The notes under the pieces: model-generated | Databases searched by the model: none | Seen by the model: the letters and a program-made list of their open reading frames with translations, nothing else | Told to the model about the DNA's origin: nothing | Shown here: positions 1 to 24,000 of the stretch, piece by piece | Position numbering within the stretch: the first letter of the stretch is position 1 | Layout: each line of letters opens with the position of its first letter | Source: Pseudocalidococcus azoricus BACA0444 | GTDB taxonomy: Bacteria; Cyanobacteriota; Cyanobacteriia; Thermosynechococcales; Thermosynechococcaceae | Assembly: GCF_031729055.1 (NCBI RefSeq) | Contig: NZ_JAVMIP010000011.1 | Span: 59,936-83,935, forward strand | Direction: 5' to 3' | Length of the DNA stretch: 24,000 nt | Position numbers and translations under genes: made by a program

Positions 1-130
1 AGAGGGCGAGATTTTCAGGCTGGGTAATCATAGTTAGCCTAGAGAGATATTGGGTTTGACGATAGGGGCTGGAATGGCTCGTGGGTTTAATAAAACTAAG
101 GTGCAGTGAGTTGATCGAATCGTTAGCAAC

Positions 131-2071
131 TTACTGATTTAAACTAAAGCGCAAAATAATATCATCAAAGTCAAAATCTCCTCCGCCAAGCAGATCTTCA
201 AACCCAATCACATTAGCTCCCCATTTAGTCCCGTGGCTGAGTCCATCTTGGTTGGCGGCTCCAAAGGTAAAATAAACTATTTTGGTTACACCATTGGCAT
301 CAAGTGCATTCACCTGCAAGAACGGTGCATATAACCCTCCACCCATAATATTGAAGGAAAAACTCTTGGTTTCCAGATTACCAATGGTTAGGGTGGAGCC
401 GGACGTTTGGAGACGGTTTGCGGTTGATAAGGCAGCTTCAGAATAACCTGCTTGGCCTGGAGCCAGAATAGTGCCCGTCAGGGGATCTAGGACACTACCA
501 TTGCTGTCCAACAGGCGATAAAAACCCATCGAGCTTTCAAACGCTGCTTCTCGACTATAGGAACCAGAAACCGTTACGGTTGTCCCTTGGGTGAAATTCC
601 TAGCATCAATTAAATCTATGGGAATGGGATGACTCAGGGGTAGAGCTAAATCCGTTGCCTCATCCGTAGCCGCAGCAAAAGACGCATAAAAATTCTTGCC
701 ATCGGGGTCAACATATTGATAGATCTGATGGCCTGTTGCCAAGTCTTTGACCGCTAAACCAAGATTGTTACCGATGGGAGTGCCACTGAAGGGGTTGCGC
801 ATAACTGGGCCATCCACCTCCACATAGGAGACATTGGAGTTTTGAGTCAGGTTATCTTGAACGTTGATGCTGTGGGGGCTACTGGGGACGGTAAAGGGGC
901 CAGGCGGGCCATTTTCAGGATCATTACCCGGCCCACCGGGGTTATAAACGGGTGAGTAATCTCCCGCGGAAGGCATTTCTACCCGTCTAATTTGCTGAAC
1001 TGCGGTCTCATCTCCGGCCAAAATAATGTCGTAATAGTTGTCGTGGTCTTCAATGTAAGTTAGATCGTAGGTATCTTGCACTGCGGCCAAGTCTGCTAAA
1101 CCCACAACACGCACAATGCCAAATCCAGGGATGTCATAATTAATGCCAGTTTGGGTGAGGTTTATCGTTTGTCCATTAATACCTTCCGCTTGGAGTCGAA
1201 AATAGCGTCCAAATTCTGTGGGCAATAAACTCGCAATACCATCCGGGGAAAATCCAGCACTGGTGTAAGTTCGTAAGCGAAATTGGGATTGGTTGCCGTA
1301 GAGGTCTGAGCCACTATTTTTTTGATTAGTTGCTAACCAAATGGGCGCGCCTTCGCCGAGGTCACTAAAACGGTTGAGTTTGGCAGCGATAATTTTGGGC
1401 CCATTACCTTCTACATAGGGATTGAGGCTGTCAATCGTCAACCCAACGGCACTAATTGGCCCATTTGGCCCCACCATTTCTAACGGCGTACTATCTAAAA
1501 TCGTTTTGACGGAGATGGGATAAATGGCACCTGGTTGGCCTGGGGTTAAACGATTGCCAAATTCGCCGGTAATCACAACAGTTTGTCGCTCGTTATATTC
1601 ACTATTGGGCAGAAAAGAAGCAATCGCCGGGGTGACAATAGTGCCAGTGTTGAGAATGACTTGAAAGTCGGTGGGGTTAACTGTCTTAGGTAATAGCGGC
1701 CATGTGAGTACAATCGGAATATTATCGTTTTTCTCTAGGTCAACTCCGTAAGTCCGCTGAACTGTATCGGTACTAATGGCCGATGTGTAAGCCCGTTGAA
1801 GAGTAGTAGTCAGGTTGCCGAGGTTATTCCAGGCCACATTGTTGTCAAAGGCAATTTGCTGGGAGGTGGCATCGGTACTATCCATACCTGGAATACCCAT
1901 GTAGCCCTCAAAGCCGTAATTGGCGGTAAATATCCCAGCTTGGACTGAAAATAAATCACTATTGAGCAGGATATTTGTATTCAGGGAGCTGCTCTGACCA
2001 GAAGTATTCAGACGATCGCTGACCAGATAGGTGAGTAAGCCATGTGCACGGGGGGTATATTGAATCGTCAT
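131..2071 (-). CDS. Large hypothetical (probably extracellular) protein with a C-terminal DUF4114 domain
   Basis: Uninterrupted 646-aa ORF. The C-terminus FGAANQDGLSHGTKWGANVIGFEDLLGGGDFDFDDIILRF matches the GFED..GGGD.DFND-hydrophobic signature of DUF4114 (PF13448) as I remember it. The preceding LDSNGSVLDPLTGTILAPGQAGYSEAAL segment is also typical of that domain. The N-terminal ~470 aa are not recognised, and I see no obvious signal peptide or TM helix. Confidence 0.7.
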   Translation of the reverse strand: MTIQYTPRAHGLLTYLVSDRLNTSGQSSSLNTNILLNSDLFSVQAGIFTANYGFEGYMGIPGMDSTDATSQQIAFDNNVAWNNLGNLTTTLQRAYTSAISTDTVQRTYGVDLEKNDNIPIVLTWPLLPKTVNPTDFQVILNTGTIVTPAIASFLPNSEYNERQTVVITGEFGNRLTPGQPGAIYPISVKTILDSTPLEMVGPNGPISAVGLTIDSLNPYVEGNGPKIIAAKLNRFSDLGEGAPIWLATNQKNSGSDLYGNQSQFRLRTYTSAGFSPDGIASLLPTEFGRYFRLQAEGINGQTINLTQTGINYDIPGFGIVRVVGLADLAAVQDTYDLTYIEDHDNYYDIILAGDETAVQQIRRVEMPSAGDYSPVYNPGGPGNDPENGPPGPFTVPSSPHSINVQDNLTQNSNVSYVEVDGPVMRNPFSGTPIGNNLGLAVKDLATGHQIYQYVDPDGKNFYASFAAATDEATDLALPLSHPIPIDLIDARNFTQGTTVTVSGSYSREAAFESSMGFYRLLDSNGSVLDPLTGTILAPGQAGYSEAALSTANRLQTSGSTLTIGNLETKSFSFNIMGGGLYAPFLQVNALDANGVTKIVYFTFGAANQDGLSHGTKWGANVIGFEDLLGGGDFDFDDIILRFSLNQ

Positions 2072-2221
2072 GATGGTTTAGGTTTTCTAACGATTTTCAG
2101 AGAGGCATTTTTAGCGGCTTTTCTAATTCCTGATGCTAAGGAGAGCTATAGAAATTCATCAAGATTTGACCCAGGCCCGGTGGTGTTTCCTCACCTGTAT
2201 TGGTAACACTAGTGGCATAGA

Positions 2222-22415: not shown

Positions 22416-22796
22416 CTAGGCAAATTGTTTCCATTCATCTTCGAGCATCTGCACCAGGCCTTGATCGCCCCGATTCCGAGCCACTTCCATGCGGTGTTCT
22501 AGGCTCTTGAGAATCCATTGCCGATGGGCATCACCCAGATTGACCCCTTGATGTTGAACTTTAACCGGGGTCGGCAGGGCCGGAACCACAACTTCAGCGG
22601 ACTGAACAGCAGAACCATCGGTATTGTAAACAACACCTCGCCAGCAAAGCGTCTGGGCAGGAACTGATTTCAAAGGAGAAGTCACAATCCGAGCGATCCA
22701 GGCCGCCCCCCGATAGTTGCCCATGACATCCCCAGGGGTAGTGGTTACTTGGTTGTCTGGACGATCATAGGGAATACCACGATAAGTCAGTTTCAT
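22416..22796 (-). CDS. DUF4278 domain protein (cyanobacterial)
   Basis: N-terminal MKLTYRGIPYD is the hallmark DUF4278 start (MKLTYRGv.Y). A second degenerate copy (LCWRGVVYN) and the typical C-terminal helix LEHRMEVARNRGDQGLVQMLEDEWKQF are present. Confidence 0.8.
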   Translation of the reverse strand: MKLTYRGIPYDRPDNQVTTTPGDVMGNYRGAAWIARIVTSPLKSVPAQTLCWRGVVYNTDGSAVQSAEVVVPALPTPVKVQHQGVNLGDAHRQWILKSLEHRMEVARNRGDQGLVQMLEDEWKQFA

Positions 22797-23067
22797 CTTA
22801 AAAACTCCCGAAAATTAATTTAATGGCTACAACAATCTCACCCTTTGACTTCGATTGCCTTCTTGAGGTTGCCAGCTTTGATAGGCTTAACTCTGGCTCT
22901 TTCTGTATCTAATTATACGGTTTTTTAGATAAGGTTGCCAAACCCTGACATTACATTTACAAAATTTCGTAATCTTGACAATCCGGGTTTTCAGGTTAGA
23001 CATGGGGGTAGCTCCTCACCGGCCTGGAATCACTGTAGGATCGGGGCTAGTGGATGGAAATGTGCCG

Positions 23068-24000
23068 GTGATTGATCTCAAGCAGTTGCGGGAAAACCCG
23101 ACAGCCATACAAGCCCAACTCAGCCGTCGCGGGACTTATGATCTCCAGGCCCCCTTAGACCTAGATACCCAAATCCGGCAACTGGAACAGCAACGCTCCC
23201 AACTCCAGGCCCGGAGTAATGCCATTGGAGCCGAAGTTGGGCAAAAAATTAAAAAAGGCACAGATCCCCAGGCCCCGGAACTCCAAAGCCTCCGTCAAGA
23301 AGCCAGCGAGATTAAACGCCAACTCAGCGAACTAGAACCCCAAGAGCGGCAACTGCGGGCGGATCTCGAGGCTTTATTATTGATCATTCCTAACCTACCC
23401 AGTCCGACTACGCCAATCGGGAGCGATGAAACGGAAAATGTCGAGATTCGCCGATGGGGGGATGACCTCAAACCGACCCATGCTGTGATTAACCACTGGG
23501 ATTGGGGGGAAAAACGGGGCCTGCTGGATGTGCAACGCTCCGTTAAGGTGGCCCAAAGCCGGTTTGTAACGTTGATCGGTGCCGCTGCTGCCCTCGAACG
23601 CGCTTTGATTCAGTTCATGCTCAGTCGGCATACCCAAAACGGCTATGTGGAAGTTCTGCCCCCGTTTTTAATCAACAGTGACTCCCTCACAGGCACGGGG
23701 CAACTGCCAAAATTTGCCGAAGAAAGCTTTAAGTGTGCCGATGATGATCTCTGGTTGACCCCCACGGCTGAAGTTCCCGTCACCAACTTGTATCGAGACG
23801 AGATTTTGGCGGCTGAGGATTTACCCATTTACCACTGTGCCTATACCCCTTGTTTTCGGCGGGAAGCGGGCAGTTATGGGCGGGATACCAGGGGGCTGAT
23901 TCGCCTGCATCAATTTAATAAGGTGGAACTGGTTAAGCTGGTGACTCCCGAAACCTCAGCCGCAGAACACCAGGCCTTGGTGCAGGATGCCACGGGGATT
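23068..24000 (+). CDS. serS: Seryl-tRNA synthetase, 5' portion (runs off the window end)
   Basis: Not in the ORF track because there is no stop within the window. The frame reads (V)[21 protein letters not shown]...coiled-coil arm...[39 protein letters not shown]......[30 protein letters not shown]...[61 protein letters not shown], with class II motifs 2 and 3. GTG 23068 gives the canonical M-I-D-L-K start. GTG 23062, GTG 23050 and ATG 23002 are in-frame alternatives. Confidence 0.9.

Follow-up and report, generated by a model that had tools for sequence, protein, structure and literature searches.

The asymmetric heptamer GGCCTGG as a HIP-type iterated word in place of HIP1 in one cyanobacterial genus

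The stretch of contig NZ_JAVMIP010000011.1 of Pseudocalidococcus azoricus BACA0444 analysed here (24,000 nucleotides, hereafter the window) is crowded with a single short word, the heptamer GGCCTGG and its complement CCAGGCC. Our data show that this heptamer is a genome-wide iterated word of the type of the cyanobacterial highly iterated palindromes (HIP), and that it took the place of HIP1 (GCGATCGC) in one cyanobacterial genus. A first-pass annotation, made from the letters of the window, had named the heptamer as the iterated signature replacing HIP1, and counts over the whole genome bear this out. In the following, G000 denotes this genome, and G001 and G002 denote genomes of two other species of the same genus.

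Abundance and asymmetry of the heptamer

Exact search of positions 1-24000 gave 81 copies of the heptamer (38 on the + strand and 43 on the - strand, 3.4 per kb), close to the roughly 80 that had been counted by eye, and dinucleotide-preserving shuffles of the window gave 6.55 +/- 2.8 copies with a maximum of 16. The positions listed in the first-pass annotation were all correct except 19641, which should be 19640. The window is not a local anomaly, and the G000 assembly (3.46 Mb, 34 contigs, 49% GC) carries 11,229 copies, or 3.24 per kb, far ahead of every other 7-mer. HIP1, reported as missing from the window, indeed has 0 copies there, and its 35 sites in the whole genome are about the number expected by chance. 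The HIP1 core CGATCG is about 2 times under-represented in G000, with 235 sites against 383-488 expected.

Ratios of observed to expected copies over the whole genome depended on the background model, and were 30, 14, 6, 2.6 and 1.16 for Markov orders 0, 1, 3, 4 and 5, respectively. Read literally, the order-5 value is the result that the first-pass annotation had named as speaking against its proposal, namely a heptamer no more frequent than its constituent penta- and hexamers predict. We rejected it as a disproof because the order-5 test is circular: 81% of GGCCTG and 91% of GCCTGG hexamers sit within the heptamer, so that the constituent words are mostly the heptamer itself. When the motif was masked from the background (orders 2-4), 400-800 copies were expected, giving ratios of 14-28. 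HIP elements are recognized by abundances above about 0.2 per kb and ratios above about 15, and the density of the heptamer together with its order-0 ratio lies above both values.

The limits of the word are sharp. Throughout the genome, each of the 21 one-letter variants is 6-55 times rarer than GGCCTGG, and flanking positions hold at most 0.23 bits of information compared with 2 bits for each core position; a logo of the flanks, suggested as a check in the first-pass annotation, thus gives a consensus of 7 bp. Moreover, the copies lie in 8,443 distinct 15-mer contexts, the commonest of which occurs 16 times, and therefore the heptamer is not part of a longer repeat unit of the repetitive extragenic palindrome or miniature inverted-repeat transposable element (REP/MITE) type.

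GGCCTGG differs from its own reverse complement and hence lacks the palindromic form of HIP elements. GGCCAGG, in which CCWGG stands beside GGCC the other way round, has 1,697 copies and is 6.6 times rarer than GGCCTGG. The 10-bp palindrome CCAGGCCTGG, formed by two overlapping heptamers and present at both window positions that had been reported for it (Table 1), has 828 sites genome-wide, whereas 1,043 are expected from two independent half-sites around GGCC. In addition, GGCC sites outside the heptamer are at expectation (19,820 vs about 20,750). From the rarity of GGCCAGG, the lack of CCAGGCCTGG excess over independence and the ordinary frequency of plain GGCC, it follows that the unit is a genuinely asymmetric 7-mer, and neither a palindrome nor a sum of two palindromic targets.

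Despite this asymmetry, orientation along the genome is that of a fair coin (chi-square of 148 with 156 degrees of freedom in 20-kb windows), and therefore the heptamer is not a polar motif like Chi or the FtsK-orienting polar sequences (KOPS). Close inverted pairs of the heptamer are nearly absent, with observed/expected ratios of 0.05-0.07. We considered this scarcity as a feature specific to the motif and rejected it, because it is generic to GC-rich 7-mers in G000: for close inverted repeats of any 7-mer, 7-30 bp apart, the ratio is 1.2 with no G/C, 0.09 with six and 0.03 with seven. Such depletion with GC content suggests a strong general avoidance of GC-rich hairpins in this genome.

Distribution, conservation and residence of the sites

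Around aroA, the motif reaches 4-5 per kb and HIP1 is 0 only in the three genomes G000, G001 and G002. In the 27 other relatives sampled the picture is reversed: HIP1 reaches 0.5-2.6 per kb, and the motif does not rise above background. In larger samples, G001 has 3.52 motifs per kb and G002 has 3.0-3.2. Among 401 genomes of the phylum, G000 has 828 CCAGGCCTGG sites, and none of the remaining 400 exceeds 97. Thus, among the relatives sampled, the motif is confined to one genus of three species and is mutually exclusive with HIP1, which is the behaviour of an alternate word where HIP1 has been lost.

Part of the phenomenon had already been described in the literature, with the motif mis-specified. 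Synechococcus sp. PCC 6312 is known to be without HIP1 and to be enriched for the octamer CAGGCCTG, at 0.37 per kb and with an observed/expected ratio of 14.7 (Xu et al. 2018, PMC5861425; Rodriguez-Cruz et al. 2026, PMC13756078). The frequency of CAGGCCTG in G001 is 0.37 per kb, equal to the published PCC 6312 value (PMC5861425), and G001 is probably this strain. Both surveys of PCC 6312 covered palindromic octamers only (PMC5861425; PMC13756078). In G000, the full heptamer is included in 97% of CAGGCCTG octamers and outnumbers the octamer 9-fold, and therefore the published octamer is the visible tip of the asymmetric heptamer. We are dealing with the same phenomenon in the same genus; what differs is that the frequency of the palindrome does not exceed that given by two independent half-sites, and that conservation, untestable in PCC 6312 for Xu et al. 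for want of a second genome (PMC5861425), is newly tested here. The alternate HIPs of Elhai (2015) are all palindromic and do not include GGCCTGG (PMC4390886), and our literature search for the heptamer itself returned nothing relevant.

A related case may exist outside the genus. In 60 kb sampled from G062, a closed 3.67-Mb genome of a different family, HIP1 is absent and GGCCTGG is the top 7-mer at 1.97 per kb, accompanied by GGCCCTG(G) and other GGCC-centred words. The enrichment is weaker than in the genus, about 6 times expectation, and more diffuse. A congener of G062, G149, is an ordinary HIP1 genome. These data suggest that HIP1 was given up for GGCC-based words a second time, independently, in G062.

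Positions of the heptamer are conserved between species beyond what other 7-mers show. Nucleotide identity of G000 is about 89% to G001 and about 77% to G002, and 82% and 60% of heptamers, respectively, are conserved in these genomes, compared with 46-54% and 14-22% of other 7-mers in the same frame. When only sites with a conserved amino acid were counted, codon identity to G002 was 77% inside the motif and 32% elsewhere for CTG, 83% and 55% for CAG, 87% and 60% for GCC, and 71% and 43% for GGC (all P < 1e-14). Intergenic heptamers are also kept, with 73% conserved in G001 against 54% of other intergenic 7-mers (P = 1.5e-5). Positional conservation inside as well as between open reading frames (ORFs), which Xu et al. 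(2018) described as a property of HIP elements, is hence shared by the heptamer.

Turnover between G000 and G001 is balanced, with 217 copies found only in the former and 200 only in the latter. In the 38 genes that are covered and aligned in all three genomes, parsimony assigned 35 gains and 20 losses to terminal branches, and therefore motif gain is still under way. Turnover sites have an excess of multi-base differences, at least three base changes being found in 20% of them and in 12% of controls. We also considered one-letter differences between species as indicators of methylation hot spots, but these are confounded, because position 4 is silent in all three main reading frames.

The motif separates resident from recently arrived DNA, as the first-pass annotation had proposed. 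The window is colinear with G001 except for the three long segments in the last rows of Table 1 and 200 bp at 4437-4636, and the three long segments lacking from G001 are the AT-rich, motif-free stretches. At the density of shared DNA, zero copies over the 3.1 kb of these inserts has a probability of 6e-6. Over 390 kb of syntenic DNA, shared sequence carries 3.83 motifs per kb and strain-specific segments 0.94 per kb. The motif-free intervals reported from the first reading (8660-9616, 17747-19022 and 20580-22453) are real and all coincide with DNA that G001 lacks, but by spacing only the third is unusual, since among 81 gaps 3.5, 1.2 and 0.17 of these respective sizes are expected. The sparseness claimed for the DUF4114 gene was not significant (P = 0.10). 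In the whole genome, 56 motif gaps of at least 2.5 kb occur, mostly with 34-46% GC, and motif density climbs with the GC content of genes, from 0.63 per kb to 4.67 per kb. The rRNA operon at G000:C8:2661-8273 (16S site at about 7565) is native and of normal GC content and forms a motif-free stretch of 5.6 kb; therefore, absence of the motif indicates either recent arrival or extreme sequence constraint.

Reading frames, codon use and effects on proteins

Gene calls were based on ORFs and covered 84% of the genome. Coding DNA carries 3.45 heptamers per kb and intergenic DNA 2.13. In the window, the frames previously assigned to the copies at 6626, 7896, 12601, 6055, 12258, 17326 and 17358 agree with the ORFs, and the intergenic sites at 2171, 5907 and 13603 were confirmed. 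The statement that all three reading frames are used is true, although usage is very uneven: three of the six combinations of frame and strand, encoding Gln-Ala, Gly-Leu and Ala-Trp (Table 1), hold 90% of coding copies. Along genes, the metagene profile of motif positions is flat, which excludes a promoter, ribosome-binding-site or terminator element.

These unequal frames and the climb of density with gene GC content would be compatible with an artefact arising from base composition or from preferred codon pairs or dipeptides, but this explanation is already refuted and retains a negligible probability. Genes contain 10,069 copies, 6.4 times the 1,568 expected when synonymous codons are shuffled within genes and 13 times the 766 expected when codon order is shuffled. 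The motif moreover uses minor codons: CAG accounts for 39% of the codons for Gln, and CTG for 20% of those for Leu. Of Gln-Ala pairs, 63% are written CAG-GCC (20% expected), and C precedes 85% of those; 33% of Gly-Leu pairs are GGC-CTG, compared with 6% expected; and Ala-Trp is GCC-TGG in 86% of cases, with a preceding G in 92% of those. Intergenic copies are both enriched and conserved, both strands are used, and relatives of equal GC content are without the motif. The first-pass annotation had argued that codon or amino-acid bias could not explain the word, and we agree that the motif acts at the DNA level and not via codon choice or protein.

Table 1. Positions of heptamer-related features and motif-free segments in the window
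Position	Strand	Feature	Gene or basis
6127..6136		10-bp palindrome CCAGGCCTGG, two overlapping heptamers; contains the published octamer CAGGCCTG	exact search
12516..12525		second CCAGGCCTGG palindrome	exact search
6508..6514	-	example of xxC-CAG-GCC, Gln-Ala, the commonest coding form; 4,671 copies genome-wide	dprA
6626..6632	+	example of GGC-CTG-G, Gly-Leu; 2,514 copies genome-wide	dprA
6055..6061	+	example of xxG-GCC-TGG, Ala-Trp; 1,875 copies genome-wide	dprA
13603..13609	+	example of an intergenic heptamer	exact search and ORF map
8795..9425		motif-free, 41% GC, decayed toxin-antitoxin pair; missing from G001	flanks contiguous in G001
17823..18960		motif-free, 41% GC, SocA/Panacea cassette; missing from G001	colinearity with G001
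20588..22279		motif-free, 43% GC, MtrA-like/DUF4346 gene; 20923-22279 not colinear with G001	just 151 bp aligns, at 75% identity

Effects on protein sequence were followed in 240 orthologues of G000 and the HIP1-type relative G004 (1.29 HIP1 and 0.32 motifs per kb), with dipeptides counted over identical aligned columns. Pairs encoded by the motif are more numerous in G000 than in G004 (Gln-Ala, 740 vs 461; Ala-Trp, 157 vs 67; Gly-Leu, 732 vs 610), and pairs encoded by HIP1 are more numerous in G004 (Asp-Arg, 215 in G000 and 359 in G004; Arg-Ser, 202 and 278). Just 22% of motif-encoded Ala-Trp pairs are also Ala-Trp in G004; in the typical change, Trp is retained and the preceding residue has turned to Ala. 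Thus, each genome's word reshaped its own proteins, the heptamer in G000 and HIP1 in G004. The dipeptide Trp-Gln is 1.73 times over-represented in the G000 proteome. It is mostly TGG-CAA that does not adjoin the motif, which rules out the motif as the cause of this enrichment.

Forces behind the word and comparison with known systems

A sequence-specific, orientation-independent force creates and preserves the word, and acts only on resident DNA. Our best reading, to which we give a probability of about 0.6, is that the heptamer is a HIP-type 'self' word kept in place by such a force. The word is recognised as an asymmetric 7-bp double-stranded stretch, whichever way round it lies and wherever it sits in a gene or a spacer. 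The positive force is either selection or a bias of transmission or repair, and is strong enough to override codon preference and alter amino acids. It is limited to lineage-resident DNA, so that density grows with residence time and fresh cassettes have none. We infer the identity of the force, and our best guess is that the word may take over whatever HIP1 does elsewhere.

HIP1 is conserved and considered to be under selection (PMC5861425), and a role as uptake watermark is the current leading hypothesis for it (PMC13756078); a preprint (10.1101/2024.09.10.611283) likewise proposes HIP1 as an uptake/recombination watermark. By analogy, GGCCTGG may serve as an asymmetric mark of 'self' that is recognised by the machinery of natural transformation or recombination, a new dialect that has supplanted HIP1, with G062 as an independent and related switch. 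We offer this proposal as tentative and on balance doubtful, and our confidence in the step from HIP1's role as watermark to the heptamer is low. A reader within such machinery would spread the word by molecular drive, and the watermark proposal would account naturally for such drive, for a dialect common to the species of a genus, for the exclusion of foreign DNA and for a distorted proteome, as is the case with the DNA uptake sequences (DUS) of Neisseria and the uptake signal sequences (USS) of Pasteurellaceae.

Several points weigh against a 'self' word held by such a force. Our searches identified no reader protein for the heptamer and no gene whose presence tracks the motif. Close inverted pairs, given their scarcity, are not used as terminators in the manner of Neisseria, and no known uptake sequence is as short or as densely spaced as this word, with its 7 bp and 3.2 copies per kb. 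In addition, the conservation pattern expected from selection is also that expected from biased transmission or repair, so that these data do not separate the two.

Biased repair is central to the alternative in which the word has no function and is a by-product of methyltransferase-guided mismatch repair, according to the ratchet of Elhai (2015): a core such as GGCC is marked by a resident methyltransferase, and repair favours the fixation of mutations that extend the site. The motif does contain GGCC, a known methylation target of cyanobacteria (PMC4390886, PMC13756078), and variants that keep GGCC (GGCCNGG and GGCCTGT) are 1.7-3 times enriched, whereas no enrichment is seen for variants with GG broken at positions 1-2. 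MutS and MutL are intact, and each of the three species has a Dam-like D12 methyltransferase; however, searches with MutS and MutL did not discriminate motif-bearing genomes, and homologues of the conserved D12 enzyme at 51-52% identity are also found in HIP1-type genomes. GGCC by itself gives 'G-meC' on both strands, so that the asymmetric extension TGG is not predicted, and GGCC outside the heptamer is not in excess, as described above. Motif-bearing genomes contain many methyltransferase genes, the specificity of which is not readable from sequence. Among the 5-methylcytosine (m5C), N4/N6, D12, type I/IIG and Eco57I families, no member tracks the motif in G000-G002, G062 and its HIP1-type congeners, and GGCC-rich G062 has an unusually small methyltransferase set. 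The sites are, moreover, conserved in position, which Xu et al. regarded as evidence against pure replenishment by repair (PMC5861425). We therefore consider a functionless by-product of this kind unlikely. A narrower form of methylation-coupled repair, proposed in the first-pass annotation, invokes a Dcm-like CCWGG methyltransferase and a Vsr-like endonuclease that inflate the word via very-short-patch repair. The heptamer contains CCTGG as well as GGCC, and E. coli shows a mild inflation of CCWGG. This proposal is nonetheless already largely refuted and very improbable. Vsr (PF03852) was not found in G000, G001 or G002 by a search in which control genomes were positive, and the sole occurrence of the related fold DUF559 is an insert in one G000 gene, with none in G002. 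The search for Dcm-like enzymes found all three m5C methyltransferases of G000 in motif-free islands of 34-36% GC; these enzymes differ between species, and G002 has a single, different one. A CCWGG enzyme could not distinguish GGCCTGG from GGCCAGG, yet their frequencies differ as given above, and the T:G precursor words are not depleted (observed/expected ratios of 1.02 for GGCTTGG and 0.93 for GGCCTAG).

In a third kind of explanation, put forward for HIP1 by Xu et al. (2018), the word is bound by a protein that structures the nucleoid or organises the chromosome. An orientation-independent word that is genome-wide and conserved in and between genes would suit such a protein. Close direct pairs of the heptamer are 3 times rarer than those of other 7-mers, which fits redundancy of a nearby extra site. 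On the other hand, our analysis identified no protein that binds the word, and packaging by itself leaves the absence of the word from islands unexplained, as islands also need packaging. We regard this role as improbable, though less so than the Dcm/Vsr mechanism.

Regarding the methyltransferases met in these searches, the Dam/DpnM-like D12 gene at G000:C14:25271-26248 (-) is 93% identical in G001 and 59% identical in G002, where the match holds an in-frame TGA. Its identity in all other cyanobacteria is 42-52%, far more diverged than housekeeping genes (AroA, 80% and about 70%). A type IIG-like methyltransferase ORF of 1,042 residues at G000:C3:252080-255208 (+) carries the internal DUF559 domain, with its Vsr-like fold, and has a native-like motif density of 2.9 per kb; no equivalent of this ORF was seen in G002.

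The function of HIP1 has resisted explanation for about 30 years, and current ideas assume a palindrome with nested methyltransferase targets. The clean swap of HIP1 for a word that is denser and asymmetric, and that bears the same marks of being maintained, amounts to a natural experiment, and indicates that whatever reads such words tolerates asymmetry. If reading of the heptamer as a 'self' signal is true, HIP function would need neither a palindrome nor HIP1-specific methyltransferases. PCC 6312 is culturable and hence open to transformation, methylome and pull-down work, for which the published motif should be corrected from an octamer palindrome to the heptamer. The heptamer also offers a practical marker for dating acquired DNA within the genus, and provides a case of a DNA word rewriting protein sequence proteome-wide.

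Among known systems, the closest are HIP1 and the alternate HIPs (GGGATCCC, TCGATCGA, GGCGCC, rCCGGy and GCsGC; Elhai 2015, Xu et al. 2018). Like them, the heptamer is a hyper-abundant, GC-rich short word that is conserved in position in and between ORFs, skews dipeptide usage and holds the cyanobacterial methylation core GGCC, and it excludes and is excluded by HIP1. Unlike them, it is non-palindromic, has 7 bp, reaches 3.2-3.5 per kb compared with a highest reported HIP1 frequency of 2.73 per kb (PMC5861425), and comes without an identified matching methyltransferase. Chi and KOPS are likewise asymmetric over-represented words of 7-8 bp, but the heptamer has no strand polarity. With DUS and USS, the heptamer shares its asymmetric short form, equal use of both strands, a 'dialect' common to related species, scarcity in recently acquired DNA (reaching zero in the inserts of the window), placement in tolerant reading frames and measurable effects on the proteome. 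It differs from these sequences, which have 9-12 bp, in being shorter and about 3 times denser, and in not being paired into terminators.

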